Origin: a virus
Lineage: Duplodnaviria; Heunggongvirae; Uroviricota; Caudoviricetes
Strand: one strand, 5' to 3'
DNA: 64,000 bases
IMG/VR virus record: IMGVR_UViG_3300032220_000751
Shown: positions 2,951 to 59,770 of the stretch, one piece after another
Layout of the letters: the number at the start of each line of letters is the position of its first letter
Numbering within the stretch: position 1 is the stretch's first letter
Made by a program: the position numbers and the translations under genes
Notes under the pieces: generated by a model
What the model was told of the DNA's origin: nothing
What the model saw: the letters and a program-made list of their open reading frames with translations, nothing else
Database searches by the model: none

Positions 2951-2980
2951 GCCCTCCCTTCGGGGAGGGCTTCTTTCTCA
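2951..2980 (+). terminator. rho-independent terminator
   Basis: GCCCTCCC-TTCG-GGGAGGGC stem-loop followed by TTCTTTCTCATCCCTTTTCTTTTT. Confidence 0.85.
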
Positions 2981-3036: not shown

Positions 3037-3084
3037 AGAACGGTCTATTGTCCTCTTTTTAACTATGTTTAAGGAAGCCCTATA

Positions 3085-3690
3085 ATGGCACTGCTCACTA
3101 CCAAGAAATACAACATCAAAGAAGTCATCTATCGTTCCAACCCGAACCTGGGTCTGCAAGAGAACATCATGATGGCCATGGACAAGAAGAAATCCGATTT
3201 GCTGTTCCCCGGTCAAGTCAAGCCCAAGCCAGTCATCAACTACGAGTTCTATCTGGACTACGATGGCTACAAAGCCAAACTGCCGGACAGCGCCAAGTGC
3301 ACGATCACCAAATCGTACATGGACACGCTCATCAACAACGCCACCAAGCAATTCGAATCCACTCGCCTGGCGTACAACAAGTTCGTCAAGGCCGATGACA
3401 AGAGCATCGAATACTGGCATGAGTTGAAGCGTTTCGTGGTCGATGATGAAACCTATGTCAATGACATCGACGCAGCTATCGAAAATGCATGCTACCACAG
3501 TACGCGTGCATTCGCAGAAGGTCGCTACATGCCACGTCGTGTCGTCCGTACGCAGTATCTCATCATCACAACCCACAACCTGTTCGCATTCAATCCGTGG
3601 GCTGAAGGTGAAGCACTGCGCTTGCGTCGTCTGTTTGAAGAGATGCAAGAAGAACGTCTGAAGAATCTGTCCATCACTCCTTGTAAGTAA
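3085..3690 (+). CDS. hypothetical protein (201 aa)
   Basis: RBS AAGGAAG; ORF. Confidence 0.6.
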   Translation: MALLTTKKYNIKEVIYRSNPNLGLQENIMMAMDKKKSDLLFPGQVKPKPVINYEFYLDYDGYKAKLPDSAKCTITKSYMDTLINNATKQFESTRLAYNKFVKADDKSIEYWHELKRFVVDDETYVNDIDAAIENACYHSTRAFAEGRYMPRRVVRTQYLIITTHNLFAFNPWAEGEALRLRRLFEEMQEERLKNLSITPCK

Positions 3691-3716: not shown

Positions 3717-5450
3717 ATGTTTTCTCATCCATTTTATTTCTTCTGGCAAAACAAGTCTCCGTTTTCCAATTGGTATATCCGGAACTTCAAAGTCAGAGAA
3801 ATGATCTTCAATTGCGTTGAGCAATACATGATGTACCAGAAGGCTGTGTTCTTTGGTGATTTGGAAACTGCTAAGCTTATCATGGCAGAATCCAAACCAA
3901 AGAAGCAGAAAGAACTGGGACGTCAGGTCAAAGGCTTCAATCGCATTGATTGGGATTCTGTAGTTGAGGATATCCTCTACACGGCTATCAAGGCCAAGTT
4001 CACCCAGCATCGTGATCTGGGTGAATTGATGCTAAGCATCACTGCGAAAGAATTCGTCGAAGCATCTCCGTATGACCGGATCTATGGTGTGCGATTGTCA
4101 ATGAATGACCCTCGCATCCAGTCAAAGAAATTATGGCTCGGCCTAAACAAGCTTGGGCGTGTGCTGACCCGAGTACGTAACTGGCTGTATGTCAAGAAGA
4201 AAGGAAAGAACATGATCGATCTGTCCCCGCATCATCCAGAAGTCATTATTCTGGATTTGACAGATGTGTTTGCCGATGCACAACGGCGGCTGGCACATAC
4301 GGGTGATGTGAATCTGCTGTTGCCCTCGATGGTCAGTAGCATCATGACGTGTGTGGAATGTCGTGATCCCGATATGACCCGGTTGGAAGTCTATGTCTCT
4401 GACTTGATCGAACAGTTCAAGAATGATGGCATGCCAACTGAGGATGGTGAAATTGCCGCAGCTATCGCTAAAGACATCGGACGTAAGCTTGTCTATGAGA
4501 TCGAGAAGATCGGCGGTTACGATGAGAACGATAATTTCGATTACGATGTCTATCGTGTGGAAATCTCCGGAGCTGTGGTACTGACTCGTCTGGATCCTGT
4601 GGGCGCTCGTGCTCAAGAGAAGAGGAAAGAATGGTTTCCTGATCCGGAAGCTGTTGGTAAATCGATTTCTTCAGGTAGCAGGGTTGACCATATGGTCATG
4701 GTCGATGACGACGGCAATCCAATCAAGACGTCTGTAGTGGATATCCCTGAACCCACTCAAGAACAGAAGGATCATATTGCTTCTTTCGAAGTTAAACTTC
4801 CTTCGCTTGAAGAAATGGAGAATCATCCGCATCAAGGATACTTCCAAGGCCAACACAATGTGCAATATGCTGCTAAGTTAGGAGAAGTAGTCACTCCTGA
4901 ACAGCAGCTGCAGAACTACGAAGCACATGAGCGTCGTGTGGTTATCGAGGAGAATGTCCCGGCTGCTGGTTTCCGTAGTCGTACGGAGTACGATCTCCCC
5001 AGTGAAGACTTTACTTCATCGACTGTTGAGTCCAATATCAGCAACAAAATCGATAAGATGCTTCATAGCCCTAAGTTCAATATGAAGTTTGCTCCTTGCG
5101 ATGATCTGGGAGAAATCTCTGTCAGATTGAACGGTCAAACCATTCAGAATCCAACACCTGAACAATTGTCCGAAGTTGCCAATAAGTTGGGTTTCGATGC
5201 AGCTGACGTCATCATGGGACAAGACAAAGGTTATCGTGAGGTTCCCTTGTCTGAAGTCAAAGAGTCTCCTTATAAAGAGATTCTCGACAATGCGTTCCAG
5301 GATCAGGAAAGGGTTATCATCAATGCAGCTCCACGCTACGTACCCCTTGGTATCGTAGACGGCGATCAACAACAACAGAAGTGGAAAGACACTACAACAG
5401 GGGAAGTGCTTACCAACGAAGAACGATTTAATCGAGTTTCAAAAGACTAA
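3717..5450 (+). CDS. NADAR (YbiA/DUF1768-like) domain protein with a ~400-aa C-terminal extension of unknown function
   Basis: N-terminal ~160 aa carry the NADAR hallmark (FFW..SPFSNWY...F...EQYMMYQKAVFFGD...LGRQVKGFNRIDWDSV...AKFTQ...L..T....VEASPYDRIYGV); the rest has no motif I recognise. Confidence 0.7.
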   Translation: MFSHPFYFFWQNKSPFSNWYIRNFKVREMIFNCVEQYMMYQKAVFFGDLETAKLIMAESKPKKQKELGRQVKGFNRIDWDSVVEDILYTAIKAKFTQHRDLGELMLSITAKEFVEASPYDRIYGVRLSMNDPRIQSKKLWLGLNKLGRVLTRVRNWLYVKKKGKNMIDLSPHHPEVIILDLTDVFADAQRRLAHTGDVNLLLPSMVSSIMTCVECRDPDMTRLEVYVSDLIEQFKNDGMPTEDGEIAAAIAKDIGRKLVYEIEKIGGYDENDNFDYDVYRVEISGAVVLTRLDPVGARAQEKRKEWFPDPEAVGKSISSGSRVDHMVMVDDDGNPIKTSVVDIPEPTQEQKDHIASFEVKLPSLEEMENHPHQGYFQGQHNVQYAAKLGEVVTPEQQLQNYEAHERRVVIEENVPAAGFRSRTEYDLPSEDFTSSTVESNISNKIDKMLHSPKFNMKFAPCDDLGEISVRLNGQTIQNPTPEQLSEVANKLGFDAADVIMGQDKGYREVPLSEVKESPYKEILDNAFQDQERVIINAAPRYVPLGIVDGDQQQQKWKDTTTGEVLTNEERFNRVSKD

Positions 5451-5742: not shown

Positions 5743-6510
5743 ATGGAAAAGAGATTGAAAATGAAGAAGGCGTCCTTCATTGTCTGCGAAGGCATGGATG
5801 GATCTGGTAAGACGACAGTGTCTAAGTATCTACTGGAGTTAATGGGTTTATTTGGCTATGATGTCAAGTGGACGCGTGAACCTGGTGGTACTCCACTGGC
5901 TGAAAGTATCCGTAACCTGATACTGACAACTGAGATGGATTCTACTACTGAACTTCTGCTGTTTAACGCAGCACGTCGTGATCATGTAGAAAACCTGATC
6001 AAGCCGTCTTTAGCAAAGGACATCACAGTGGTATCGGATCGCTTTGTGGATTCGACCATTGCTTACCAGTGCTACGCTAATCAGCGTTCACCTCTTCATC
6101 AAGTACTATCTCTGCACCAGACTTGTATCGATTTCGATCCTGACTATGTCATTTACCTTGACATTCTCCCTGAAGTAGCAGCAGCTCGTGCAAATCAGCG
6201 TGGCGCTGGTGACCGTTTCGACAACATGCCAGCCGACTATAAGAAGCGTCTGGAGATGGGGTACCAAGTAGGGATGCTCATGCATAAAGCTAGCACCTCT
6301 ACTGAAGTCGTTACCATCGATGCCAATCAAAACCTACTCGATGTATTTGAGCAAGTGTTTAATTGGTTTGTTCGCTACTACTGCGCCACGCATCAACCTG
6401 CAGCGTCATTCGTCTTTGATAATGAAAAGCATACTAAAGCGCTCGAAAACCCTGTACTCCAGGCGGCGTTAGAACAGCATCGTCAGCACTGGCGTCTTAA
6501 CTTTAGCTAA
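5743..6510 (+). CDS. tmk: thymidylate kinase (dTMP kinase) with ~50-aa C-terminal extension
   Basis: P-loop FIVCEGMDGSGKTT, then REPGGT, DRF.DSTIAYQ and LID region, collinear with E. coli Tmk; start chosen at ATG 5743 behind AGGAA (ORF opens at 5698). Confidence 0.85.
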   Translation: MEKRLKMKKASFIVCEGMDGSGKTTVSKYLLELMGLFGYDVKWTREPGGTPLAESIRNLILTTEMDSTTELLLFNAARRDHVENLIKPSLAKDITVVSDRFVDSTIAYQCYANQRSPLHQVLSLHQTCIDFDPDYVIYLDILPEVAAARANQRGAGDRFDNMPADYKKRLEMGYQVGMLMHKASTSTEVVTIDANQNLLDVFEQVFNWFVRYYCATHQPAASFVFDNEKHTKALENPVLQAALEQHRQHWRLNFS

Positions 6511-6526
6511 TACGGTAACGTCTACA

Positions 6527-6898
6527 ATGGATGAAAAATACGCATTCTTTGATGACAATGGTCGAGTAAAGGAAATTGAGTATCCGATCTTTACTAAACC
6601 ATTCGAGAAAAAGGAACACTGGTTTATCAAGTTCTTGATCTGGACTGGTGCTTTAACTCGTCAGTATGAGTGGTTAAATTTCCATCAACGATACATCATG
6701 TTATCGTTAGCCAATCCCATGCGTTGGTCGATTGCGCTCATGATCCAGATCGATAGCTTAATCGATAGTAAGACTATTGACCCAAATACTCTGAGAGAGG
6801 TGAATCTCTTAATGCACGTGCATGGGGTGCCCGTTGCCCTTGCATGGTATCGTATCTTCGGATACAAGATTCCTATTAACTCAGAGGTGAGAGTATGA
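6527..6898 (+). CDS. hypothetical protein (123 aa)
   Basis: ORF; weak RBS. Confidence 0.45.
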   Translation: MDEKYAFFDDNGRVKEIEYPIFTKPFEKKEHWFIKFLIWTGALTRQYEWLNFHQRYIMLSLANPMRWSIALMIQIDSLIDSKTIDPNTLREVNLLMHVHGVPVALAWYRIFGYKIPINSEVRV

Positions 6899-7335
6899 TA
6901 GCCCTACCTAGCTACGATTCTCCAGACATTCAAGATGAAGAAGGTACTCTGTCCCACAAGGTCAGGATTCCTATGTTCCAGTACCACATGGAACAAGATC
7001 ACTTTATCTGGAAGGTACTGGATAAGTTGCGTTGTTTGGATCGTGTTTTCATTCCCATTGACAGACGTTCTCGTTTGGTCAAGTACAGGGACCACCCTGA
7101 AATCATCAATGGTAAGTTCGATGCTAATCGTGTCTCCATGACGCGCGAGCAACTCGACGGTATTATCAAGACCATTGATGATGATGCATTTTCAGGTCGT
7201 GCTAGTGCGCGTGACTATTATTGTTATCGCGTGGATCGTTTGATGAACATCGCTAAAGTGCCGGTAGGTACATGCGATTACATCGTACTGGGTATTCGCG
7301 TCTACACCAAGGATGTGATTTATCCAGTGAATTAA
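6895..7335 (+). CDS. hypothetical protein (146 aa)
   Basis: RBS GAGGTGAGAG; ATGA overlap with upstream gene. Confidence 0.5.
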   Translation: MIALPSYDSPDIQDEEGTLSHKVRIPMFQYHMEQDHFIWKVLDKLRCLDRVFIPIDRRSRLVKYRDHPEIINGKFDANRVSMTREQLDGIIKTIDDDAFSGRASARDYYCYRVDRLMNIAKVPVGTCDYIVLGIRVYTKDVIYPVN

Positions 7336-7350
7336 TTATTGGCAAAAATT

Positions 7351-7394
7351 AGAGGATGCTTGTATTCTTTTGAATAGAATGCAAGTATTCCTCT
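7351..7394 (+). terminator. imperfect ~17-bp hairpin, possible terminator or attenuator
   Basis: AGAGGATGCTTGTATTC ... GAATGCAAGTATTCCTCT with 2 mismatches and a bulge, followed by a T-rich stretch. Confidence 0.45.
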
Positions 7395-7395
7395 A

Positions 7396-7590
7396 GTGCC
7401 TTTATGTCTTTCATTTAGGAAGAGTATGTCTAATTTAGGTTTTATGTGGTTTAGTTTTGGTGTCATCGTTTTGATCATGTGGATTATCAAGATGTGTGAG
7501 AAACCAAAAGAACCTCCCAAACTCGATCCCAACACCCTGCCGCCAGAAGTGTTAGATGAAATCCGTAAGGAGAACAAACATGGCTTGTAA
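7396..7590 (+). CDS. small single-pass membrane protein (TM helix plus KPKEPPKLDP motif)
   Basis: RBS AGGAAGAG; hydrophobic helix FMWFSFGVIVLIMWII then a P/K-rich segment. Confidence 0.5.
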   Translation: MPLCLSFRKSMSNLGFMWFSFGVIVLIMWIIKMCEKPKEPPKLDPNTLPPEVLDEIRKENKHGL

Positions 7591-7609
7591 TGATGCTTTC
7601 GTGGAATCG

Positions 7610-7714
7610 ATGATTGTCCTCTATAGTCCTGTAGTGGCGGCAATCATCTTAACCGTGTTCACTTATGGTGCTTACCTGTTCCATAAGTACCTGAAACGTA
7701 AAGGATGGGCATGA
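7610..7714 (+). CDS. putative 34-aa membrane peptide
   Basis: ATG ORF translated by hand (MIVLYSPVVAAIILTVFTYGAYLFHKYLKRKGWA); below the ORF-track size cutoff; sits in a cluster of similar genes. Confidence 0.3.
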   Translation: MIVLYSPVVAAIILTVFTYGAYLFHKYLKRKGWA

Positions 7715-7923
7715 TTCAAAACGACCCACTCTTAACAGGTTTCTGCTATGGACTCCTGATTCTCTTTGTCATCTTCTTTGTGTTCTGGACTTGGATCTGG
7801 TTTATTGATCCTCCTAAGCCTCCTTCTTACTGGGAATGGCAGGCGACAAGACGGAAGTTCGATAGCGAGATGAAGAAGATCAAAGAAAGGAAAGAAGCAT
7901 GCCAGACGAAAGAGTCGTCCTAA
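7705..7923 (+). CDS. small single-pass membrane protein (TM helix plus DPPKPPSYWEW motif)
   Basis: RBS AAAGGA; TM helix; paralogous layout to 7396 and 7899. Confidence 0.5.
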   Translation: MGMIQNDPLLTGFCYGLLILFVIFFVFWTWIWFIDPPKPPSYWEWQATRRKFDSEMKKIKERKEACQTKESS

Positions 7924-8105
7924 TTCGCATGGGTAATGACTGGGATTGGTGGCAGTGGTTGTTGTTATTTGTTGTCAGTCTGGTTGCTACGCTTTGCATC
8001 ATTGTCTTCCCCGATAAGGGTCCTCGCATGGGTCCTGAAGTCAGGAAGATTTACAAGAGAAAGAAGATTAACAAGCTTAAAGCAAGGAGGCGCTATGGAC
8101 GTTAG
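7899..8105 (+). CDS. small single-pass membrane protein (TM helix plus PDKGPRMGP motif, basic C-terminus)
   Basis: RBS AAAGGAAAG; TM helix. Confidence 0.45.
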   Translation: MPDERVVLIRMGNDWDWWQWLLLFVVSLVATLCIIVFPDKGPRMGPEVRKIYKRKKINKLKARRRYGR

Positions 8106-8679
8106 TGCAACGATGGTGCTGACGGTTCTGGCCTGCGCCATCGTCATCATACTCTCAATTGCAGTAGGTGGTATCATCCGGGCCATGAACCCTAAAAGGA
8201 TGATTCAAGAATATCGCTTTGTGAAATTGCACGGCGAAAATCATCTACCCATGGTGAGTCAACGATCCACCGACGGTGTGACTTACAAAGTAGCTGTAGG
8301 TACAGAAGATCAATTCGATGCATGGATGTCGATGGGTGTTTTTGATGATGAATTTCCCTACTTCGATTTTGATTTCTTATTAGATCATCGTGGCTGGACG
8401 ATGTCTGACGGTAGCGTCTATATGGTCAACCGTAGTTCCAAAGACAACTACCATGAATATCAGAGCATCATGCATGATCTGATCAAGGAACACCAAAAGC
8501 TTTATGGCGATGAGATTGGCCTTGAATCAACGGGTATGTATATCCCCAGTTATTTACAAGCAGCCATGGAGTATGAATACGCCGATCGTTTCCCAGGGGA
8601 ATGGGAAAAGTTCAAAGGTGAAAAAGAAGCAAAGAACTACGTAGAACCCATTGACCATTTCGTCAAACAACTCGCTTAA
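8095..8679 (+). CDS. membrane-anchored hypothetical protein (194 aa)
   Basis: Strong RBS AAGGAGG 5 nt before ATG 8095; N-terminal TM helix; the ORF-track start 7936 is upstream and looks non-coding. Confidence 0.55.
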   Translation: MDVSATMVLTVLACAIVIILSIAVGGIIRAMNPKRMIQEYRFVKLHGENHLPMVSQRSTDGVTYKVAVGTEDQFDAWMSMGVFDDEFPYFDFDFLLDHRGWTMSDGSVYMVNRSSKDNYHEYQSIMHDLIKEHQKLYGDEIGLESTGMYIPSYLQAAMEYEYADRFPGEWEKFKGEKEAKNYVEPIDHFVKQLA

Positions 8680-8695
8680 CTCAAGGAGCATCAAC

Positions 8696-9688
8696 ATGCC
8701 TCGTACCCTGAAAGACCTGATCAGCAATTCCATCTCGCAATCCAAGGTGCCAACCTTCAACGACATCAAAGCACCAGCATCATCGAAACCCCTGCCCTGG
8801 GAAAACAAGCAATCTCGTCTGACTCCGGAACAAGAGTTCCAGAAGTCGCTGAAGAAAGACGACAAGCCTGCTACGGTTGACCGCAGTGGCCTGGAACAAG
8901 TGAGCGATCCGGTCATGAAAGAAAACCTCACGCGTCTGGCTGATGCTGCTGAACGTATCGTGGCCAAGAAGCCTACCATCAAGGCAGTGGTCAAGCCCAA
9001 GAAGAAGCCGATGGTTTCCAAGGGTAAGGTCAAGCCGATCGATAAGCCTGCTCCGAAGCGTGAATCGATCACCCCCAAGGCCAAACCTACCGTGATCAAG
9101 ACCAAGGCTGTGACGCCTATCAAGTCTGGTAAAATGTCGGTCGGTGGTTTCGTGCAAGAGCTTAACAAAGCTGTCGGTAACACCAACGTGACTGCGGCAC
9201 CGGAACAAAAGAAAGGGGATGTGAATGCAGGTCAAAAGAAGGCTGGTCCCGGTCGTCCGAAGAGTGAAGGTAAGACCGCAGCACAAAAGCCGGGTAAGAG
9301 TGCACCTGCTAAGGGGGCTCCGGTGGGTAAGGCAGCAGCTGATAAACAAGCAGCTGTGAAGAAGGAAGTCAACAAGCCCAAGACGATGAAGAAGATCATC
9401 GACGCGGTTTCCGATCGCAAAGCATCGCCCAAGGAAATCGGTAAGAAGGTCGCTGACATCGTCGTGGAAGCCAAGAACGTGGCTACTAACAAAGAGATCG
9501 TTATCAATGCAAAAAACACCCCGGTTCAAGACAAGAAGGTTCCGGCCAAAGCGCTTCAATCTGCAGAAAAGCCCGCACCGAAGAAAGTCGTTCACGGTAA
9601 GGGTAATGTGTCTGCGCATAGCAGCAAGGCAAAACCGGTTCAATCTGGCAAAGCAGCTGGCAAAGCTGGCGTGAAGGCTAAGAAGTAA
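8696..9688 (+). CDS. lysine/alanine/proline-rich basic protein, histone-H1-like (putative DNA-binding or nucleoid protein)
   Basis: RBS AAGGAG 7 nt before ATG 8696; ~25% Lys with KPxx/AAGK repeats (KAKPVQSGKAAGKAGVKAKK); GC-rich codon usage. Confidence 0.6.
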   Translation: MPRTLKDLISNSISQSKVPTFNDIKAPASSKPLPWENKQSRLTPEQEFQKSLKKDDKPATVDRSGLEQVSDPVMKENLTRLADAAERIVAKKPTIKAVVKPKKKPMVSKGKVKPIDKPAPKRESITPKAKPTVIKTKAVTPIKSGKMSVGGFVQELNKAVGNTNVTAAPEQKKGDVNAGQKKAGPGRPKSEGKTAAQKPGKSAPAKGAPVGKAAADKQAAVKKEVNKPKTMKKIIDAVSDRKASPKEIGKKVADIVVEAKNVATNKEIVINAKNTPVQDKKVPAKALQSAEKPAPKKVVHGKGNVSAHSSKAKPVQSGKAAGKAGVKAKK

Positions 9689-9708
9689 TTTTCACAAAAG
9701 GTGAGTAC

Positions 9709-9891
9709 ATGATGAAGAAAAGGAAACTGCGTTACAGACGCTGGCAAGTACCACGAGAAAGAGATCCGAACTTCCGTCGGATGTTTATCAAGTCGTGGCG
9801 TCGTGAACATTCTCGTATTCGTTATCCCTTGATGTTCCGGGAATGCTACATGATCCATCCTGAGTATTCCAGCTACCTGTTACACGGTTAA
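9709..9891 (+). CDS. arginine-rich small basic protein (60 aa)
   Basis: RBS AGGTGAG; MMKKRKLRYRRWQVPRERDPNFRRMF... Confidence 0.45.
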   Translation: MMKKRKLRYRRWQVPRERDPNFRRMFIKSWRREHSRIRYPLMFRECYMIHPEYSSYLLHG

Positions 9892-9926
9892 GTACTCACC
9901 ACCCTCAACTAAAAAGAAAGCTATTC

Positions 9927-10790
9927 ATGCTGAAAGTTCAAGTCGATTACCACGATGATGCTTTGTTCGACAGCACAGACTTCGAGCCGAAGATCATTAC
10001 TTTCCCTGGCGGGGAATGTCATGTGACTCTACCGGATGAATTGCTGGACAATCCACGTGCCCGTGCGTTTACCATTAAGACGCTGATCAAGAACGCCGAC
10101 CACATCATGCATTTGCTGATGGTTACAGACGCGATTCGTCGCCACTACGCGGGCTATCCGATTTTCCTACACATGCCGTACATTCCGTACGCACGTCAAG
10201 ACCGCGTAGCCAACCACGGCGAGTCTTTGTCGGCTCGTGTGTTCTGTGATCTGATCAATGCTCAGAACTACGAAGTCGTCAGCGTCGCTGATCCGCACAG
10301 CCCGGTGGTGGAAGCGCTGCTGAACCGCATCGACGTGGTCGATCCGATTTACATGGTCGAAGAAGTGCTGCAAAGCGATCTCTTCAAGGACGGTGTGGCG
10401 CTGGTTGCACCGGACGCAGGTGCCCGAAAGCGTGTGCTGAATATGGCCATGGAAGTCAACGTCGAAGACGTGATCTTTGCTGACAAGGTACGCGATACCA
10501 AGACTGGCAAGATCACCGGTACCGTGGTCAACAACGAAGTTCCTCAAGGTAAAGCTATTCTGGTCGTGGATGACATCTGTGACGGTGGTCGTACCTTCCT
10601 GGAACTGGGTAAGGTCTTAAAGGAGAAGACCGACCAACCGCTGTACCTGTACATTACCCATGGCATCTTCAGCAAAGGTCTGGAAGAACTCGGTAAGTAT
10701 TACGACCGTATCTTCACTGCCTACAACTGGAATGATGAAGAAGCCAACAATCCCCAACTGACCTTGATCAAGGAAGGAAATCTGCTGTGA
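9927..10790 (+). CDS. ribose-phosphate pyrophosphokinase (Prs) family protein; candidate ADP-ribose pyrophosphate synthetase of an NAD+ reconstitution pathway
   Basis: Prs motifs PYIPYARQDR and the nucleotide/PRPP loop VVDDICDGGRT; collinear with E. coli Prs; translationally coupled to the downstream NampT-like gene. Confidence 0.8.
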   Translation: MLKVQVDYHDDALFDSTDFEPKIITFPGGECHVTLPDELLDNPRARAFTIKTLIKNADHIMHLLMVTDAIRRHYAGYPIFLHMPYIPYARQDRVANHGESLSARVFCDLINAQNYEVVSVADPHSPVVEALLNRIDVVDPIYMVEEVLQSDLFKDGVALVAPDAGARKRVLNMAMEVNVEDVIFADKVRDTKTGKITGTVVNNEVPQGKAILVVDDICDGGRTFLELGKVLKEKTDQPLYLYITHGIFSKGLEELGKYYDRIFTAYNWNDEEANNPQLTLIKEGNLL

Positions 10791-12490
10791 GCGAACAACA
10801 AGAAAACATCGTCGAGAAAGTTGCCAATGGTCTCGTGCCATTCAACCTGGCAGACTTCTACAAGACTGGTCACCCAGCCATGTATCCTCAGGGTACTGAA
10901 ACCCTGGTGGCCAACTTTACCCCGCGCTCGGCCAAGTACGCTCCGGTACTGCCGGAATTGTTCGATAACAAGATCGTTTGGTTCGGCCTGCGTGGTTTCA
11001 TCCAGGAATGGCTGATCGATGTCTTCAATCGCGAGTTCTTCCAAAAACCCAAGGAAGAAGCCATCAAGAAGTACCGTCGTCGTATGGACACTTCTCTCGG
11101 TCCTGGTGCTGTCAGCATGAAGAAGCTGGAACTGCTCCATGATCTGGGTTACCTTCCGCTGGAAATTCGCGCCCTACCTGAAGGCGCTCGTGTGAACATC
11201 AAGGTACCGCCGGTACTGTTCATCAACACCGCTGGCCCTGAACTGTCGTGGGTGGCTACCTACTTCGAAACTCTGATGTCCTGCGAAAGCTGGAAAATCT
11301 CGACGGTCGGTACCATTGCTTTCGAGTTCCACAAGCTGCTGACCTACTTCGCTGTGTCCACTGGCGCGCCTCTGGACTTTGTGCGTTGGCAAGGTCACGA
11401 CTTCTCGTTCCGTGGCATGTCGGGTGTGCATGATGCAATGCGTACCTGCTCGGCTCACTTGCTGTCGTTCATGGGTACCGATACCATCCCGTCTATCGAC
11501 TACCTGGAAGACTACTACGACGCCGATTCCGACAAGGAACTGGTGGGTGGTTCGATCCCAGCATCGGAACACAGTGTGATGGCTCTGCGCATTCTGCTGA
11601 AGCTGAAGGAACTGGCCAAGCTGCCGGAGAACGCAGGTCTGACTCACAAGCAACTACGTAAGGCAGCTGAGCTGGAAGTGGTGCGTGACTATGCCATCAA
11701 GGAATACGACACTGGTCTGGTCTCCATGGTCTCGGATACCTTCGACTTCTGGAATGTGATCACTCACATCGCCAAGGTCCTGAAGCCTGAAATCATGCAA
11801 CGCAAGCCGGATGTGTTCGGTAATGCCAAGGTCGTCTTCCGTCCTGATTCGGGTGATCCAGTGTACATCCTGACCGGTTACAAGAACAGTGAAATCGTTG
11901 CTAATGGCGATGGTACTTTCACTGTCAATGCAACTGGCAGAGTCATCCAAGATCACGAGCGTCGTGGTGCTGTGGAATGCCTGTGGGATATCTTCGGTGG
12001 TACCGAAACCAGTCTCGGCTACAAGCTGCTGGATTCCCACGTCGGTCTGATCTACGGTGACTCGATCACTCTGCCGCGTGCTATGCGTATCCTGCGTCGT
12101 CTGCAAGACAAGGGCTTCGCATCCACCAACGTAGTCTTCGGTATCGGTTCGTACACTTACAACATGCTCTCCCGTGACGTCTTCGGTTGGGCCATGAAGG
12201 CGGTGTACGCGGTAGTCGATGGTGAGCCGGTTGAGATCTACAAGGATCCAGCAACTGACGACGGTATGAAGAAGTCGGCCAAGGGTCTGCTGCGTGTGGA
12301 TAAGGTAGGTAACAACTACTTCCTGACGGAGAACTGCACCCCGGAAGAGTTCGAAGGCGGTGAACTCAAGCCGGTGTTCCGTAATGGTGAGATGTTGGTC
12401 AAGCCTACCTTTAAGGAAGCCAAGGAACGTCTGCACCTTTCTTGGACGTGTCCGGAACCTAATAGCATCGTCTGGCAAGACGCTGCTTAA
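10787..12490 (+). CDS. nicotinamide phosphoribosyltransferase (NampT/NadV) family protein; alternatively Namat-like
   Basis: GTG start overlapping the Prs stop (GTGA), RBS AAGGAAGGAAA; NampT motifs DFYKTGH, LPLEIRALPEG, GHDFSFRG, PASEHS, VSDTFDFW, RPDSGDP, GDSIT, collinear with human NAMPT. Confidence 0.85.
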   Translation: MSEQQENIVEKVANGLVPFNLADFYKTGHPAMYPQGTETLVANFTPRSAKYAPVLPELFDNKIVWFGLRGFIQEWLIDVFNREFFQKPKEEAIKKYRRRMDTSLGPGAVSMKKLELLHDLGYLPLEIRALPEGARVNIKVPPVLFINTAGPELSWVATYFETLMSCESWKISTVGTIAFEFHKLLTYFAVSTGAPLDFVRWQGHDFSFRGMSGVHDAMRTCSAHLLSFMGTDTIPSIDYLEDYYDADSDKELVGGSIPASEHSVMALRILLKLKELAKLPENAGLTHKQLRKAAELEVVRDYAIKEYDTGLVSMVSDTFDFWNVITHIAKVLKPEIMQRKPDVFGNAKVVFRPDSGDPVYILTGYKNSEIVANGDGTFTVNATGRVIQDHERRGAVECLWDIFGGTETSLGYKLLDSHVGLIYGDSITLPRAMRILRRLQDKGFASTNVVFGIGSYTYNMLSRDVFGWAMKAVYAVVDGEPVEIYKDPATDDGMKKSAKGLLRVDKVGNNYFLTENCTPEEFEGGELKPVFRNGEMLVKPTFKEAKERLHLSWTCPEPNSIVWQDAA

Positions 12491-12550: not shown

Positions 12551-13150
12551 ATGGAAAACAATCTTATCGTATTAGACGGTGATGGTGTATTGGTCGACTA
12601 CCATCACGCCTATGCTCAGGCATGGGGTAAAGCATTCGGTGAAGTACCTGCAATCAAAGATCCCGATGCTTACTGGGCATTGGATCGTTACGATGTTCGT
12701 AAGCTTCATGGTGATGAACTGGATCACTTCAAGAAGCATATGGACTATGAATTCTGGGCTACCATGCCCGCCATGCCTGGTGCTGTAGAGGCATGTCAAA
12801 AACTGGTAGATGCAGGTTACAAATTGATCTGTGTAACCGCATTGGAAGATGAACACAAATCTGCGCGCTGGAAGAATCTGTTAGATCTGGGTATGCCTCT
12901 GGAAGGTATAGTTTGTACAGGACATGGGAATGATACGGCCAGTCCCAAGGCATCAGTCTTAAGTGTCTTGAATCCGGTGGCATTCGCAGATGACTTCGTG
13001 CACTATATGCGCGGCATTCCACCACACATCCATGCAGCTTTGATCATGCGTTCTAAGAACGGTACACCGAACGTCGGTCCTGATCTTAAGTTAGCTCATT
13101 CTCAACATGCTGATATTCTTAGCTTTGCGGAATATTGGGTCAATCGTTAA
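12551..13150 (+). CDS. HAD-superfamily hydrolase, 5'(3')-deoxyribonucleotidase (NT5C)-like
   Basis: Motif I IVLDGDGVLVD, motif II LICVT, motif III K, motif IV AFADDF; no obvious SD upstream. Confidence 0.65.
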   Translation: MENNLIVLDGDGVLVDYHHAYAQAWGKAFGEVPAIKDPDAYWALDRYDVRKLHGDELDHFKKHMDYEFWATMPAMPGAVEACQKLVDAGYKLICVTALEDEHKSARWKNLLDLGMPLEGIVCTGHGNDTASPKASVLSVLNPVAFADDFVHYMRGIPPHIHAALIMRSKNGTPNVGPDLKLAHSQHADILSFAEYWVNR

Positions 13151-13155
13151 CCCGG

Positions 13156-13187
13156 AAGGGGAGTTTTGCGACTCCCTTTCTTTTTTG
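13156..13187 (+). terminator. rho-independent terminator
   Basis: AAGGGGAGT-tttgcg-ACTCCCTT then TCTTTTTTGTC. Confidence 0.85.
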
Positions 13188-14139: not shown

Positions 14140-14952
14140 ATGAACACGAAATATCTGGACGAAGTATTGAAGCAAAAGGGCTACTCTTTAGTGATTAACG
14201 AACACCGCTACGGTAGTGGGTTGTACGCGGTTATCTCTTACGGCATCGAGAATGCGTCTGATATTGCTGACAGCTTTACCGGCGGTGATGATGATTACGA
14301 TATCGTAGAACAGTTCTACGGTAGTGGTAATCCGATTGCACTCTATAGCACCAAAGAAACTATCAGTGAACTGATGGTTGATCTTGATGAGAAATGTCGT
14401 CGTCTTCTGGCTATTGGCTGGTACGACTGGACAGATCTCATGTGTTATGTAGCAGATGAGTATCGAGCATGTTGTGAGAACCCTGGTGGTGAGCGTGATT
14501 TCTCAGCTGCCCTTCAGGTTAAGATCAGTGACATGAAGGCAAGGCTAGATGCAGTCTATAGTCTAGGCGGTACAGCACCTCCTATGAAGAAAGAAGATGG
14601 TCAGCAGTTAATTCGACTGCTTAAAATGAACATCGAAGTCAAACCTGAATTGAAGGATTTGTTCAGAGGCTTGTTTGGTGGCTATGTCGCTGACGGTGTC
14701 CAAGGTGAGCATTCTATTTATGCAAGTAATTGGAAGGTAATCAACAATTACCTATTAGCACCGTTTCGTGCAATACCTGAATTGAGTGGTGATGAAATTC
14801 TGGATCCGAAAGAGGGTATTCCACTGCTGCGTTGTTTGTCTTCAGGTGAATCGCAGATCTTTGAACTGACATTGGAATCATGTCCTAGGGGTAGTCCGAT
14901 TCCCTTGCGTCTACCAGTGCAGTTTGTTCTCGTTATCGACAACTTCAATTAA
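14140..14952 (+). CDS. hypothetical protein (270 aa)
   Basis: ORF downstream of the motif; RBS-like AAAGAGAAA. Confidence 0.55.
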   Translation: MNTKYLDEVLKQKGYSLVINEHRYGSGLYAVISYGIENASDIADSFTGGDDDYDIVEQFYGSGNPIALYSTKETISELMVDLDEKCRRLLAIGWYDWTDLMCYVADEYRACCENPGGERDFSAALQVKISDMKARLDAVYSLGGTAPPMKKEDGQQLIRLLKMNIEVKPELKDLFRGLFGGYVADGVQGEHSIYASNWKVINNYLLAPFRAIPELSGDEILDPKEGIPLLRCLSSGESQIFELTLESCPRGSPIPLRLPVQFVLVIDNFN

Positions 14953-18480: not shown

Positions 18481-18939
18481 ATGGGTATTTGTCCAACTGT
18501 AGATTTGAGAAGTTTAGATGCATTCTTGAAAAATCGCGGTATGGCGTTTGGTGAGTCGCGCTATGGTGATAAAGACTATCAGTTGATGATCTCGCATAGC
18601 GTGAAACACGCCCACAGCGTCATCGATACTGAAAATGAATCAGGTGATGGATTCTCGTGGGTTGATGACTATTATGGAAGTAATCCCATTTCCATGTATC
18701 TCACCGGACCCAATCTCCTGACATGCTTGCGAGAAGCTAACCGTCGTGCTTATGCGATTCAGTCGGTAGGTGTGAAGGAATGGGAAGATCTGATGGGTGA
18801 ATTTAATCAACTCTTCTATCTCGCTTGCAATAGTTTCCGAGAAGGCGTGTCTCGTAAACCCATTAGTCCAGAGCTTCAAGCTAAACGCGATGATTATGCG
18901 CAACGCATGGAAAAAGCACTGAGAACATTTATCTATTAA
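18481..18939 (+). CDS. hypothetical protein (152 aa)
   Basis: RBS AAAGGAG; ORF. Confidence 0.55.
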   Translation: MGICPTVDLRSLDAFLKNRGMAFGESRYGDKDYQLMISHSVKHAHSVIDTENESGDGFSWVDDYYGSNPISMYLTGPNLLTCLREANRRAYAIQSVGVKEWEDLMGEFNQLFYLACNSFREGVSRKPISPELQAKRDDYAQRMEKALRTFIY

Positions 18940-20970: not shown

Positions 20971-23453
<2,483 letters not shown>

Positions 23454-30761: not shown

Positions 30762-31568
30762 ATGGAAGAACCTAATCCATTTGAGTTATCCCCAGAGCAG
30801 ATCAAGCAGTTTCATGAGGAACTTCCTCGTGTAATGAGTCAGCGGCTTGATCTCGATGAGGTAATAAGGGTACAACGAATTCGTAATGAGAGAAAAATGA
30901 AAGATCCAACATACGCACCGGTGTATGCAGCGCTGTACCCTGAGCTGACAAAGATAGCCCGTAAACACGGCTATGCGATGGCGGTTCATGGAACACTTGC
31001 AAGGGATATGGACTTGATCTGTGTCCCGTGGATGGACCACGCATCCAAACCTGACGATGTGATTGATGAGATTGTCAATTCGTTCCACATCGTTCGTGTG
31101 GGCGGTCTCACCAGACATGCTCACAATCGTGTTGTTCAAACGATCAGCATCGGACATGGTGAATGCTTCCTCGATCTGTCTTTCATGTATCGTTGGAATA
31201 CGATTGATGAAGTCGATGGCATGCAACGTAGTGAACTTGCTGTATGGAATCTGATTGATTTTTGTGGCAAGAACCCAGTCGAAATCAAAGCAGTCGATCA
31301 GAGAGCGTGGGAGCATCTGATGATCTATATCCCTAAAGAAACACTTCTGAAGGGATTGGAGTTCAAGATGAAACATTCGGATGACCCTGAGAAGCTGCAA
31401 AAGGAAATCACCCGTATCACAGGTAAGCAACCGGATACATTAGCATCTGTCGAAGAAGCTGAGTTAAACGGTGGTCAGCCTATTGTTCAAGGTGAGTCAC
31501 ACAAGGTATTTCAACGGGTAGGGGATCCTATTCCAGACCCATCTAATCAAAAGGAAAACAACACATGA
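30762..31568 (+). CDS. hypothetical protein (268 aa), co-translated partner of the SPFH gene
   Basis: ORF; ATGA overlap with the downstream SPFH gene; start uncertain (alternative start at 30687). Confidence 0.5.
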   Translation: MEEPNPFELSPEQIKQFHEELPRVMSQRLDLDEVIRVQRIRNERKMKDPTYAPVYAALYPELTKIARKHGYAMAVHGTLARDMDLICVPWMDHASKPDDVIDEIVNSFHIVRVGGLTRHAHNRVVQTISIGHGECFLDLSFMYRWNTIDEVDGMQRSELAVWNLIDFCGKNPVEIKAVDQRAWEHLMIYIPKETLLKGLEFKMKHSDDPEKLQKEITRITGKQPDTLASVEEAELNGGQPIVQGESHKVFQRVGDPIPDPSNQKENNT

Positions 31569-32458
31569 ACTACGAAGAAATGCAACAGGCTAAAGTCGAT
31601 GCCGCAGAACAGAAACAAAAACAACTTTACCGTCGTATCAAAATAATCGCGGCGGTATTCTTCCTCTTGGTTGTGGGGGTTGTCTTAAATCCGGTGGTGA
31701 TCGTACAGCCGGGTTATCGCGGTGTGGTGACACACATGGGCGCTACCCAAAAGGTTGTCTTGGAAGAAGGCTTGAATTTCGTCATGCCGATCCGTGACTC
31801 CGTACATCAGATTTACGTCGGTATCAAGAAGACTGAAACTGATGGTGAATCGGGTACATCGGATTCCCAGAAAGTCGATGTGAAGGTAGCGATCAATTGG
31901 CACCAACTGCCGAACTCGACACCTTACATCTACAAAGAACTGGGTAATGATGCTGAATCTCGTATTCTCATGCCAGCAATTCTGGATGCGATGAAGGGTG
32001 CTGTTGGTAAGTTCCGTGCAGAAGAATTGATTGTACAGCGTGACGAAGCACGGAACAAGATTACCGAACGTCTGCGCAAGATCGTTAACCCTCATGGTAT
32101 CGAAATTGATGAGACGTCTATCACCAGTCTGTCATTCTCCAAAGCATTCGATAAATCGATCGAAGAGAAGATCGTAGCTGAGCAAAAGAAGAAACAAGCT
32201 GAATTCGATTTGGCTCGTATCGAAGTGGAAGTGCGCCAAGAGTTAGCCAAGGCTACTGGTGTTGCTGCTCAGATGAAAGCTAAGAGTAAGGAAATCACTC
32301 CTGACCTTCTGGCACAGCAAAAGCTGGATAATGAGCGCGCAGCCATTGATAACCAGAAAGACTTCATTGCTAAGTGGGATGGCAAGCTGTCTAATGTTTC
32401 TGGTAGCGGCGGCATGCCGTTCTTTATGACTTTGCCTTCTACTGGCTCTGGTAAATAA
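31565..32458 (+). CDS. SPFH/band-7 (prohibitin/HflK-like) membrane protein
   Basis: N-terminal TM helix IIAAVFFLLVVGVVL, PHB-domain-like core (VQPGYRGVVTHMG...), C-terminal coiled coil; RBS AAGGAAAA. Confidence 0.75.
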   Translation: MNYEEMQQAKVDAAEQKQKQLYRRIKIIAAVFFLLVVGVVLNPVVIVQPGYRGVVTHMGATQKVVLEEGLNFVMPIRDSVHQIYVGIKKTETDGESGTSDSQKVDVKVAINWHQLPNSTPYIYKELGNDAESRILMPAILDAMKGAVGKFRAEELIVQRDEARNKITERLRKIVNPHGIEIDETSITSLSFSKAFDKSIEEKIVAEQKKKQAEFDLARIEVEVRQELAKATGVAAQMKAKSKEITPDLLAQQKLDNERAAIDNQKDFIAKWDGKLSNVSGSGGMPFFMTLPSTGSGK

Positions 32459-32468
32459 CGACATAAGT

Positions 32469-32488
32469 GGAGTGGGTGATCCCACTCC
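32469..32488 (+). terminator. hairpin GGAGTGGG-tgat-CCCACTCC, no clear U-tract
   Basis: 8-bp perfect stem 10 nt after the stop. Confidence 0.4.
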
Positions 32489-32505
32489 ATTAACAAGGAT
32501 AATAA

Positions 32506-33756
32506 ATGGAAGATACTCGCGTTTTAGCACGCATCGTCCGTATCGACGATGTTTTACCTCACCCCAATGCCGACAAGATGCAACTGGGCATCGTCGGTGG
32601 TTGGCAGTGCTGCATCAAACTGGACGAATTTAAGAAGGGCGATCTGGCCTTGTACTGCGAGATCGATTCTCTCTTGCCTGTCTCGGTCCCTGAATTTGCT
32701 TTCCTGGAAGACCGTAAGGAATCCATCAAGGTAGTCAACGAAGTCGTCTACTCCCGTATCAAGACGATCCGGCTGCGTAAGGAACTGTCCCAAGGTCTGT
32801 TGGGTAAGATCCCACGTCAACTGGGTAAAGTAGTTGAAGGTCAAGACGTGACTGAAGCACTTGGCATCATCAAATACGAGAAGAAGCAAACTCGTGTCAG
32901 TGACGGTCCTGAACTGAAACCTGGTCTGATCAAACGCTTCTGCGAATGGCTGAGGAAAGACATCAAGGATGATCTGCTGCTGCCATGGCCTTACTTCATC
33001 AAGAAGACAGAACAAGAGCGCGTTCAGAATCTGCATTCCCAGTACCTCAAAGCAGTTGAGGATGGTGAGACCTTTGAAGAATCGGTGAAGTTAAACGGTG
33101 AATCGTTTACTGCCTTCTTCGTATTCAAAGATGGTGTCCATGGTCACGCTGGTGTTTGCTCACGCAACTATGAGATCCAGACTACTGATGTAGTTTGGAC
33201 CTGGAAGCAATCCTTCCGTTATTGGCTGTCTCGCTTCGTGGGTGGTAACTCTCGTATTCTGCGGACCCGGCACTTTGTCTGGCCTGATTGGCGTACTGGC
33301 GTCAAAGCCGATGATGATCCATTCGTACGCCACTGGAAACGTTTGGATCTGGCTAAGAAGCTGGAAGACTACCAGTACAAGTCAGGTGTACAGATTGCCA
33401 TTCAGGGTGAGTTAGCTGGTCCTGGACATCAGAGCAATAAGGAAGGTCTGGAGACTGCTGACGTCTACGTGTATCAAGTATACGTGATCGATTCTGACTT
33501 CGGTATGAAGATGGGTCTGCTATTACCAGAAGACGCACGTCGGGTGACAGAGGAACTTGGTCTGAAGTACGTTCCTGTTCCTGAGAAGAACGCTAAGCTA
33601 CCACCTACCATCAAGGAAGCCTTGCTGCGTGCGGATGGTCCGGCTTATTTCGATAAGAGCCGCAGTCGTGAAGGTCTGGTCTACAAGAGCAATACCCGTG
33701 ACTTCTCGTTCAAGGTGATTAGTAACAAGTTCTTGGAAAAGAACGAGGACGAATAA
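32506..33756 (+). CDS. ATP-dependent RNA ligase-like nucleotidyltransferase with N-terminal tRNA-binding-type OB domain
   Basis: N-terminus VLPHPNADKMQLGIVGGW resembles the tRNA-binding (Myf-like) OB domain; motif I KLNGES (KxxG as in Rnl2/Rnl5), EGLVYK and FKVISNKF as motifs IV/V. Confidence 0.6.
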   Translation: MEDTRVLARIVRIDDVLPHPNADKMQLGIVGGWQCCIKLDEFKKGDLALYCEIDSLLPVSVPEFAFLEDRKESIKVVNEVVYSRIKTIRLRKELSQGLLGKIPRQLGKVVEGQDVTEALGIIKYEKKQTRVSDGPELKPGLIKRFCEWLRKDIKDDLLLPWPYFIKKTEQERVQNLHSQYLKAVEDGETFEESVKLNGESFTAFFVFKDGVHGHAGVCSRNYEIQTTDVVWTWKQSFRYWLSRFVGGNSRILRTRHFVWPDWRTGVKADDDPFVRHWKRLDLAKKLEDYQYKSGVQIAIQGELAGPGHQSNKEGLETADVYVYQVYVIDSDFGMKMGLLLPEDARRVTEELGLKYVPVPEKNAKLPPTIKEALLRADGPAYFDKSRSREGLVYKSNTRDFSFKVISNKFLEKNEDE

Positions 33757-38236: not shown

Positions 38237-38848
38237 ATGCTGATCAAAAAGAATGACGACGGTTCATTTCAAGTACTGCTGGCTTATGAAGGTCAGACTA
38301 TCGGTAATCTCAAAGCAGTGGTGTCTGCTAAGGTCTTGGATGAAACTTATCTCGACTTCAAGACGGGTAAACGCCACTTCCAATCGGAACTGGATCATCC
38401 TCGCTATAAGTTTGATCCGATGAAACAAGCGCAAGCAATCATCGATGATAACTTAGGTGATCCTCAGATGGAAGCGATGGAGCGCGCTATGACGATCAAG
38501 CTTGAGAACGTCTGCGGTTACATCACTGACATGTTACTGCTTCGTCCTGAGTCTATCGGGATCGACATTCTGATTGGTACGTGGAAGTTCAACGGACCGA
38601 TGAAAGAAGTAGCAGAGAAGTGCTATAAGGAAACAGGTGATGTGAAACTGTCTCTGCGTGCATTCTCCAATGGTACCGGTACCTGCAACGGTATTAATGT
38701 CGTCAAGGTCATCACCTGGGACTTCGTTGACCCCAACGAAAAGTACAAGCAGGATCTGTACGAGACGCTTGGCCAAGAGAAGGCAGATAGCCTGATTCGT
38801 TATCTGAACAACGAACCCCTTACTCAACCGGATAATCATGCTGATTGA
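38237..38848 (+). CDS. hypothetical protein (203 aa), tandem paralogue of 38838
   Basis: RBS AAAAAGG; MLIKKNDDGSFQVLLA..., VCGYITD, ETGDVKL and VITWDF align with the next gene. Confidence 0.55.
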   Translation: MLIKKNDDGSFQVLLAYEGQTIGNLKAVVSAKVLDETYLDFKTGKRHFQSELDHPRYKFDPMKQAQAIIDDNLGDPQMEAMERAMTIKLENVCGYITDMLLLRPESIGIDILIGTWKFNGPMKEVAEKCYKETGDVKLSLRAFSNGTGTCNGINVVKVITWDFVDPNEKYKQDLYETLGQEKADSLIRYLNNEPLTQPDNHAD

Positions 38849-59420: not shown

Positions 59421-59770
59421 TGAGTAGTGTAGAAACCATGGAAGTCATCCTCAAGGCTTTGGAAGAAGCTCGTGACAAAGGCGAACTGAACTATGTAATC
59501 GTCGACGGCGCTTTGGATAGTAAGCGTATCAAGCTGATTCCCAAAGGTCCGTCTATCCATAGTCGCAATGTTCTTATCGTTCAGAAGAACCACAGCGAGC
59601 GTGATCTGGTGTTTAACGATTTGGGTCCTGGTGGTGGATTGCCTCACTATCGCTACTACTTCAAAACAGCAGATCTCATTCCAGGTAAAGAGAATTGCAA
59701 TGTCGAGAACATCGGGCGTGACGTTGTTGCTTATCTGATGGATGGCACTCTCCCGGAAGGAACAGCATGA
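59417..59770 (+). CDS. hypothetical protein (117 aa)
   Basis: ATGATG overlap; RBS AAAAGGAGAA. Confidence 0.5.
   Translation: MMSSVETMEVILKALEEARDKGELNYVIVDGALDSKRIKLIPKGPSIHSRNVLIVQKNHSERDLVFNDLGPGGGLPHYRYYFKTADLIPGKENCNVENIGRDVVAYLMDGTLPEGTA

Follow-up and report, generated by a model that had tools for sequence, protein, structure and literature searches.

What would a bacteriophage do with a NADAR enzyme that is joined, in one reading frame, to a 412-residue extension? The question is raised by a gene in a 64,000-nucleotide stretch of DNA (hereafter the window) from the tailed virus IMGVR_UViG_3300032220_000751 (Caudoviricetes) of the IMG/VR collection. The gene is a single open reading frame (ORF) of 577 amino acids (aa) (Table 1). 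An earlier annotation, made from the sequence without database searches (the original prediction), described it as a NADAR domain with an acidic C-terminal partner, and as a plausible counter-defence factor against DarTG. The explanation that we favour, with about as much confidence as doubt, is a DNA de-ADP-ribosylase resembling the phage protein AdfN, with an acidic, non-catalytic module that serves as its tether or regulator; a neighbouring NARP1 pathway possibly recycles the ADP-ribose (ADPR) set free. The counter-defence idea agrees with the literature, where phage NADARs defeat DarTG1 (PMC11825919). However, phage NADARs are already known as anti-DarT factors (AdfN, 2025), so the core of the original interpretation is not new. 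New are the architecture, i.e. a very rare and conserved fusion with a folded domain that has no relative among solved structures and with a motif-bearing tail, and the NARP1 neighbourhood.

A NADAR domain in a rare, conserved fusion

The N-terminal 165 residues are assigned to the NADAR family by several models. Pfam family PF08719 covers aa 8–157 and is matched over profile positions 1–162 of 163 (E = 1.9e-42, 145.8 bits against a cut-off of 35.1), NCBIfam model TIGR02464 reaches 147.7 bits on aa 6–157 (cut-off 73.7), and the domain matches phrog_1017 among the PHROGs (E = 1.7e-45); these sequence matches lie far above the level of chance. The four signature strings on which the original prediction was based (FYFFWQNKSPFSNWY, EQYMMYQKAVFFGD, LGRQVKGFNRIDWDSV and EASPYDRIYGV) are all present in the translation. 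Among solved structures, sequence matches were found only to 8BAU, the NADAR of P. nicotianae (E = 1.5e-12), and 2B3W, E. coli YbiA (E = 3.2e-7), from which a NADAR fold is predicted for aa 1–165. In the phmmer alignment to 8BAU, E35 and E115 of the window protein correspond to E43 and E125 (residue numbering from PMC11543638, with a chain offset of 2 residues), and both of these touch the distal ribose in the P. nicotianae enzyme (PMC11543638). With the catalytic glutamates in place and a strong PF08719 match, the assignment of the N-terminus to NADAR stands, and the domain is predicted to be catalytically intact and of the Glu type. The position of E125 separates NADAR subfamilies, being Glu in YbiA, Asp in DarT1-associated and His in T4-like phage proteins (PMC11125620). 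This residue puts the window NADAR with a broadly defined YbiA family, and with neither the DarG1 nor the T4 type.

The domain is basic, with 30 K+R against 16 D+E. Its 120 closest homologues are nearly all 150–195 aa long, in line with the ∼150–180 aa that the original prediction gave for stand-alone NADARs. It is 36–37% identical (E ∼1e-24 to 1e-26) to the NADARs of ∼145–151-kb Escherichia phages, including Justusliebigvirus. PADLOC matched the domain over its full length to PDC-M42C, a candidate bacterial defence gene (E = 6.6e-36), and NCBIfam gave a weak match to the ‘NADAR family anti-phage protein’ DS32_2. The PDC-M42C match shows that close NADARs serve the bacterial side of the conflict too.

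The fusion is real. Its ORF starts at the first ATG past a stop codon, with AAGAGGA ahead, and an identical 577-aa call is found at the fusion locus in an independent ENA assembly (contig L010). Two orthologues, P0002 (456 aa, from a 297-kb contig) and P0003 (449 aa), carry NADAR and extension in one frame with no stop codon at the junction, and their fused domain is 42–47% identical to that of the window protein. The identical ORF in L010 and the intact frame in P0002 and P0003 ruled out an artefact of assembly or gene calling. A further call, P0001 (412 aa), is a truncation: its contig begins inside the gene, and the call starts 38 bases from the contig end. An upstream ORFan of ∼190 aa and several downstream genes are common to the three loci. 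Since the diverged orthologues have kept both architecture and synteny, the fusion is an old trait within a small uncultured phage clade.

The extension is also very rare. A word-indexed search of 5.8 billion proteins with the C-terminal region returned two matches, namely the window's own sequence and P0002. The candidate step of this search can lose close relatives; with the NADAR domain as query it missed P0002 and P0003, which are ∼75% identical there. When 1.84 billion (1.84e9) cluster representatives were searched exhaustively with an HMMER profile, three proteins with the extension came up, all three with an N-terminal NADAR. A scan of IMG/VR gave no relative of the extension, and tblastn searches of 50,697 phage genomes (E≤10) with the folded domain and a conserved tail segment gave chance matches only. 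No copy of the folded domain and no repeat of the tail motifs, such as a targeting signal common to several proteins would leave, was found in other ORFs of the window or in the related loci. The three family members all come from one clade of ∼300-kb uncultured phages.

The junction of the two parts has a feature of its own, which the original prediction does not mention. The linker reads K-G-x-x-M in all three orthologues, and the underlying DNA (AAAGGAA, 5 nt, ATG) is kept as well, so that a Shine-Dalgarno (SD)-like sequence precedes the codon of M166. The site could serve for internal initiation, or it could be left over from two ancestral genes. A stop codon could have been lost between adjacent genes, and translation from M166 could still yield an unrelated 412-aa protein; we regard this origin and double output as rather unlikely. 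The site does lie at the exact domain boundary in every orthologue despite nearby amino-acid changes, and its SD duplex score of −5.6 matches the median score of 89 window gene starts. However, about 12% of internal ATGs score equally (the site is in the top 12% of 411), and K-G-x-x-M may be a mere conserved linker. No genome was found in which NADAR and extension are separate genes, all three known copies being fused, and the open frame has survived ∼55% divergence, a point in favour of selection acting on the fusion protein.

Anatomy of the extension

The extension (aa 166–577) has a pI of 4.61, with 76 D+E against 42 K+R. It has no Pfam match at E≤1 and no sequence match in the PDB at E≤10, and its sole PHROG match is weak (phrog_13149, E = 0.007–0.012, 39 aa). 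The original prediction had called it an acidic ∼400-aa region without recognisable motif. Its acidity and the lack of Pfam and PDB matches are borne out, but the region consists of a folded domain of ∼130 aa and a tail of ∼280 aa with three conserved motifs (Table 1). AlphaFold2, which the original prediction had proposed for the C-terminal 400 aa, gave one confident block at aa 166–300 followed by ∼280 residues with a predicted local distance difference test score (pLDDT) below 50. When aa 166–300 were modelled alone from a three-sequence alignment, pLDDT was 86.7 and the predicted template modelling score (pTM) 0.81. The predicted topology is b-a-a-a-a-b-b (a strand, four helices and a beta-hairpin), and no convincing structural match to the model was found in the PDB. 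The residues E, G, Q, S, P, K, D, T and N together make up 60% of the tail. Across the three orthologues, identity is 68–77% in the NADAR domain (165–168 aa), 42–57% in the folded domain (133–135 aa), and 18–23% in the tail, which is 277, 155 and 148 aa long.

Going by alignments and models, this is the pattern of a putative folded domain for interactions and, after it, a disordered linker with short linear motifs. It is not what would be expected of a second enzyme, and the extension is probably not one. This judgement comes partly from negative evidence, as no catalytic family was detected with Pfam, PHROGs, PDB sequences or structure comparison. We propose, in line with the suggestion in the original prediction that the partner may target or regulate the enzyme, that the extension would serve in protein–protein interaction or targeting, so that the basic, DNA-binding enzyme is tethered, localised or regulated by it. 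Nothing was found that names a partner for it, and its mechanism cannot be derived from sequence alone.

A different use for the acidic module would be that of a DNA mimic, trapping a DNA-targeting ADP-ribosyltransferase (ART) while the NADAR domain repairs, in the manner of DarG. Such a bipartite antitoxin mimic would suit the net charge of the extension (∼−34) beside a basic enzyme domain and the conserved short motifs in a disordered context, and the small phage proteins AdfA and AdfB are known to inhibit DarT by binding (PMC11825919). However, no similarity of sequence or fold was seen to the DarG C-terminal domain, AdfA or AdfB, and the tail is highly variable in length and sequence, and we consider a trap improbable. 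In their general plan DarG1 (a NADAR with an N-terminal extension) and DarG2 (a macrodomain with a DarT-binding domain) do combine a hydrolase with a non-catalytic region, as proposed here for the window protein. But DarG1 has Asp where the window NADAR has Glu, and the window extension is C-terminal and unrelated in sequence. The window NADAR is a phage-encoded orphan with no cognate toxin gene nearby: Pfam found no ART or DarT domain in the flanking genes between 1008 and 14952, and PADLOC gave no DarG match, with PDC-M42C as the only match of the NADAR and none for its two immediate neighbours.

Structural comparison with viral proteins gave another lead. In a Foldseek search of BFVD with aa 166–300, the best match was a 180-aa protein of Ralstonia phage RP12 (E = 9.9e-6, probability 1.00, TM 0.69/0.53), and the other named targets were nearly all small uncharacterised ORFans of Chimalliviridae, several per genome. 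A hidden Markov model of the domain, searched against 1085 RP12 ORFs, ranked ORF008 first (exactly 180 aa, phrog_31369; E = 0.0024 in a whole-domain alignment), and the reverse profile search from the ORF008 family found the domain at E = 0.0076. Motifs P-x-V/I-x-LDL and F-[DP]-YE are common to ORF008 and the window domain. A jackhmmer search from ORF008 gave nothing, and hhalign of the two family alignments was insignificant; only structural similarity is therefore claimed. The predicted fold is common to both, and homology of aa 166–300 to the ORF008 family is plausible. ORF008 of RP12 has no annotation, and a literature search for a chimallivirus small-protein family returned nothing relevant. 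The PhiKZ inner-body family PF12699, considered as the source of the BFVD matches, was discarded after no Pfam match was found at E≤1. RP12 ORF008-like proteins are stand-alone ORFans, whereas the window domain is fused to NADAR. The folded domain would give a first functional clue to the unannotated small proteins of nucleus-forming jumbo phages.

The same matches raise the idea that the acidic domain, as a member of a fold family expanded in nucleus-forming jumbo phages, brings NADAR to a nucleus-like compartment or the replisome, or lets it enter the capsid so as to be injected with the genome. Precedents are at hand: the PhiKZ macrodomain AdfM counters DarTG2 only once it has been imported into the phage nucleus (PMC13309987), and Macro and NADAR proteins are often packaged in the virions of myoviruses (PMC9503650). 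In addition, the window has 10 accessory genes and local gene order in common with the chimallivirus RP12. On the other hand, no chimallin, PhuZ or split RNA polymerase gene was found in the 64 kb and its flanks, both orthologous loci (L002 and L003) have a sigma-70-like gene that is atypical for chimalliviruses, nuclear import reads surface patches and not a transferable domain (PMC13309987), and the similarity to the RP12 protein is structural, with sequence-level homology unproven. Targeting of this kind seems a poor prospect to us, of much the same standing as the trap.

As an observation on the same genes, the sigma-70-like gene (regions 2 and 4) lies between the fusion and the Tmk-region genes at 12107–12673 in L002 and at 5353–5925 in L003; the window has none there.

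Expected activity and the link to NARP1

Four NADAR subtypes, from E. coli and phage T4, all hydrolyse ADP-ribosyl-guanine on single-stranded DNA (ssDNA), and none hydrolyses ADP-ribosyl-thymine (PMC11125620). Three unrelated phage NADARs, AdfN-T4, AdfN-Bas32 and AdfN-Bas60, strip guanine ADP-ribosylation from DNA and defeat DarTG1 (PMC11825919). The NADARs tested act on guanine adducts only, and never on thymine adducts or DarTG2 (PMC11125620, PMC11825919). The statement in the original prediction that NADARs reverse DarT-type ADP-ribosylation of guanine is therefore published. Of the two DNA substrates that it put forward for assays, the guanine adduct is cleaved by the NADARs tested but the thymine adduct never, so a negative result is expected with the latter. 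Because all NADAR subtypes tested cleave ADP-ribosyl-guanine and three phage NADARs defeat DarTG1, we propose an AdfN-like activity for the window protein. By analogy, its basic NADAR half would most likely cleave ADP-ribose from guanine of ssDNA, releasing free ADPR and reversing guanine-directed ADP-ribosylation, of the DarT1 type or another, on the phage genome as it replicates.

The window domain resembles the described AdfNs, especially the non-T4 protein AdfN-Bas60, in being a phage NADAR of ∼160 aa with the catalytic residues kept, and, as in the non-T4 NADARs, its diagnostic residue is Glu and not His. The difference is that the described AdfNs are stand-alone proteins (∼150–190 aa), whereas the window protein has 577 aa, with a 412-aa module known from three sequences. 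Bas60 we take to be the Justusliebigvirus phage PaulScherrer; a look-up confirmed only the taxonomy of PaulScherrer, and it is through this identity that relatives of the window NADAR are linked to Bas60. T4 AdfN performs well only in T-even infection, and its authors suspect a stabilising or localising helper (PMC11825919). A natural NADAR fusion would offer a handle on what localises or potentiates phage NADARs in vivo. It would also be a handle on specificity, since whatever the tail binds would reveal which protein or site the enzyme has to get to.

The diagnostic glutamates are also those of YbiA and the P. nicotianae NADAR (2B3W, 8BAU), but these are cellular, single-domain proteins and the window protein is viral and fused. 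YbiA is tied to riboflavin metabolism and to a LexA-controlled operon. A housekeeping N-glycosidase of this sort, which detoxifies riboflavin-pathway intermediates and has no part in host conflict, would fit the Glu-type residue, the match to TIGR02464 (‘riboflavin biosynthesis intermediates N-glycosidase’) and the annotation ‘GTP cyclohydrolase II’ that many phage homologues carry. It is nevertheless very improbable. TIGR02464 and PF08719 cover essentially one domain, no riboflavin genes occur among the ORFs scanned, and the phage context, the PDC-M42C match and the published phenotypes of phage NADARs favour functions in conflict.

The fate of the released ADPR brings in the genes downstream. 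NARP1 rebuilds NAD+ (nicotinamide adenine dinucleotide) from ADPR and nicotinamide (bioRxiv 10.1101/2024.02.11.579819; PMC12774641). In the window, the end of a Prs-like gene, the candidate Adps of NARP1, overlaps a Nampt-like gene by 4 nt. Against the SPbetaL1 Namat structures 9W5X/9W5W the Nampt-like protein reaches 418 bits, compared with ≤165 bits for canonical Nampt, and on this excess of the Namat-type score we assign the Adps/Namat pair to the NARP1 type. In its selectivity-clamp helix (GIGSYTYNM), Tyr is found at F392 and Met at Y396, so that one of the two aromatic positions has lost its aromatic residue, and R399 is kept (SPbetaL1 numbering, PMC12774641). The two strongest terminators of the first 13.5 kb bracket the fusion and this pair, and a promoter-like site follows the first of them (Table 1). 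The predicted transcription unit also includes a 201-aa ORFan ahead of the fusion (no match in Pfam, PHROG, PADLOC or NCBIfam), an 84-aa ORF between the fusion and the thymidylate kinase gene (Tmk), and small ORFans after Tmk. The fusion appears to be co-transcribed with Adps/Namat.

Table 1. Features of the fusion gene and of the predicted transcription unit around it (window coordinates).
Feature	Position	Strand	Description
NADAR-fusion gene	3717..5450	+	single ORF, 577 aa, stop codon included
NADAR domain, aa 1–165	3717..4211	+	PF08719; pI 9.9; E35 (VEQYMM) and E115 (VEASPYD)
Domain junction	4200..4214	+	SD-like AAAGGAA, 5-nt spacer, ATG of M166; kept in L002 and L003
Compact acidic alpha/beta domain, aa 166–300	4212..4616	+	predicted by AlphaFold2; pI 4.35; motifs LLPS.V, EQFKNDG, GYDENDxFDY, DPVG
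Fast-evolving acidic tail, aa 301–577	4617..5447	+	mostly predicted disordered; pLDDT <50 over most
His/Gln motif ENHxHQGxxQGxH, aa 368–380	4818..4856	+	invariant positions between window protein and P0002
Motif VPAAGFRSRTEYDLxEDFTSST, aa 414–436	4956..5024	+	nearly identical in P0002, in divergent surroundings; weak phrog_13149 match
Motif MGxDKxYRxVPLxExKxSPY, aa 500–523	5214..5285	+	common to the C-terminus of P0003
Intrinsic-terminator-like hairpin ending the upstream unit	2951..2970	+	8-bp stem, 7 G-C pairs, GCCCTCCC-TTCG-GGGAGGGC, T-rich tail
Sigma-70-like promoter match	3059..3086	+	TTAACT-16-TATAAT; 10/12 consensus positions, best in the first 13.5 kb
201-aa ORFan, always preceding the fusion	3085..3690	+	orthologues directly upstream in L002 (27% identity) and L003 (32%)
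Thymidylate kinase (Tmk)	5743..6510	+	PF02223, E = 3.1e-43; same position in L003
Prs-like gene, candidate Adps of NARP1	9927..10790	+	Pribosyltran_N, Pribosyltran, Pribosyl_synth; ∼70 bits to solved phosphoribosyl pyrophosphate synthetases
Namat-type nicotinamide ADP-ribose transferase (Nampt-like)	10787..12490	+	SPbetaL1 Namat structures 9W5X/9W5W
HAD/NT5C-type phosphatase, last gene of the predicted unit	12551..13150	+	Pfam Hydrolase and NT5C
Terminator-like hairpin closing the predicted unit	13154..13181	+	12-bp stem, then TTTTTTGT

The phosphatase that directly follows Adps/Namat is of interest in itself, and the segment 9927–13181 may be a phosphatase-associated NARP1 variant in which a HAD enzyme replaces the Macro-domain Adpp.

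Comparative genomics has placed phage NADAR genes next to NAD+ salvage genes (PMC9503650), and two feeders are known that release ADPR for NARP1, the Macro-domain phosphatase Adpp (bioRxiv 10.64898/2026.01.28.702374) and the glycosidase RyDEP (bioRxiv 10.64898/2026.05.28.727677). The window resembles the NARP1-AP and RyDEP forms in having Adps and Namat in a predicted unit with an enzyme that would be expected to free ADPR. It differs from these extended forms in that 4.5 kb separates its NADAR from its NARP1 genes, and L002 lacks the association. No report was found of a NADAR as a NARP1 accessory, and the words ‘NADAR’ and ‘YbiA’ are absent from the NARP1 preprint. On the reading that we favour, the Adps/Namat pair could turn the ADPR released from DNA, together with nicotinamide, back into NAD+. 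The apparent co-transcription suggests that the theme of rebuilding NAD+ from the debris of immunity may extend to DNA-derived ADP-ribose.

The leading alternative, though still an unlikely one, is that soluble N-glycosidic derivatives of ADP-ribose, rather than DNA, are the main substrates of the NADAR, which so supplies ADPR to NARP1 or degrades a signal. These substrates would be such things as immune signals, toxin products or by-products of RNA repair, and the enzyme would work in the manner of Adpp and RyDEP. Phage NADARs, besides adjoining NAD+ salvage genes, have been predicted to prefer low-molecular-weight ADP-ribose derivatives (PMC9503650, PMC7824862). Moreover, the predicted transcription unit holds Adps/Namat and the HAD phosphatase, an RNA ligase is encoded in the window, and extended NARP1 operons are known (bioRxiv 10.64898/2026.01.28.702374, 10.64898/2026.05.28.727677). 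However, no soluble ADP-ribose substrate has been demonstrated for any NADAR, the activities on record being those on guanine-ADP-ribosylated DNA and riboflavin intermediates; the L002 orthologue has no adjoining NARP1, and nine genes separate the fusion from Adps in the window. In descending order of credibility we place this soluble-substrate feeder first among the alternatives, followed by the two-product gene, the DarG-like trap, targeting to a compartment or the virion, and a housekeeping YbiA.

Several points weigh against an AdfN-like enzyme with a non-catalytic tether and NARP1 recycling. E. coli YbiA and T4 gp30.3 cleave guanine adducts in vitro but gave no rescue from DarT1 (PMC11125620); since both failed to rescue cells, activity in vitro is no guarantee of a counter-defence role. 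The domain passes TIGR02464, a model named for N-glycosidases of riboflavin intermediates. That the extension is non-catalytic is argued from absent matches, and a new enzyme fold would look alike. The link to chimalliviruses is structural only, as local and global hhalign with 25 ORF008 homologues gave E = 0.34 and a probability of 0.2. The transcription unit was deduced from scans for consensus sites, and the region shows no enrichment of promoter-like sites. The orthologous locus L002 carries neither Prs nor Namat within 10 kb of its fusion gene, and the NARP1 linkage is not ancestral. Finally, the G+C content at third codon positions (GC3) of the NARP1 genes is 0.63–0.64 against a window mean of 0.45, and this high GC3 suggests a later insertion.

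A bolder version of the favoured reading is possible, although we hold it to be quite doubtful. The extension would be a new adaptor that delivers an anti-defence enzyme to the DNA compartment or replisome, or an acidic DNA-mimic trap, and together with NARP1 it would complete a full cycle from ADP-ribosylated DNA through ADPR to NAD+. If this were true, NADAR would be the third class of NARP1 feeder after Adpp and RyDEP. If none of these proposals holds, the protein is an ordinary phage NADAR with a lineage-specific appendage.

The phage and other genes of the window

The source is an uncultured jumbo phage of ∼310 kb, which recurs in several metagenomes with a longest contig of 310,154 bp. 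The window has 47% GC and no tRNA genes, and about 100 of its 108 ORFs lie on the same strand. It consists mostly of ORFans and of nucleotide and NAD-related genes (Tmk, ThyA, NAD-dependent ligase, RNA ligase and others). No relative at the DNA level was found in INPHARED (50,697 phage genomes), and the few protein matches scatter across unrelated jumbo phages. The genes in common with the whole RP12 proteome are all accessory, and no hallmark genes are among them; the search for chimallin, PhuZ and split RNA polymerase genes in the window and flanks was likewise empty. In RP12 (AP017924, 196759–208143) the order Tmk, small ORFs, Prs-like, Nampt-like and RNA ligase matches that of window positions 5743–12490 and 32506–33756. 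The RP12 stretch carries an inserted RtcB gene, and RP12 encodes no NADAR.

Some other genes of the window are worth recording. At 20980–23453, a LigA-type NAD-dependent DNA ligase with a BRCT domain overlaps by 4 nt the gene of a 147-aa protein that is 43% identical to ORF271 of RP12, a putative N-acetyltransferase. The ligase is a further NAD+ consumer in a phage that also appears to rebuild NAD+. At 31565–33756 an SPFH/Band-7 protein adjoins an RNA ligase of the Rnl type that has a PHA02142 OB-fold domain, and a prolyl isomerase of the cyclophilin type, extended by ∼95 aa at its N-terminus, is encoded at 51218–51997. Paralogues are found at several places. Four diverged copies of ∼200 aa (23–31% identity) form a tandem array at 58815–61564, and two tandem paralogues of ∼200 aa at 38237–39452 are 31% identical, with a weak PHROG match to ‘head maturation protease’ (E ∼1e-6). 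The ORFans at 14140–14952 and 18481–18939 make up a dispersed paralogous pair, with 27% identity over 141 aa (E = 3e-11).

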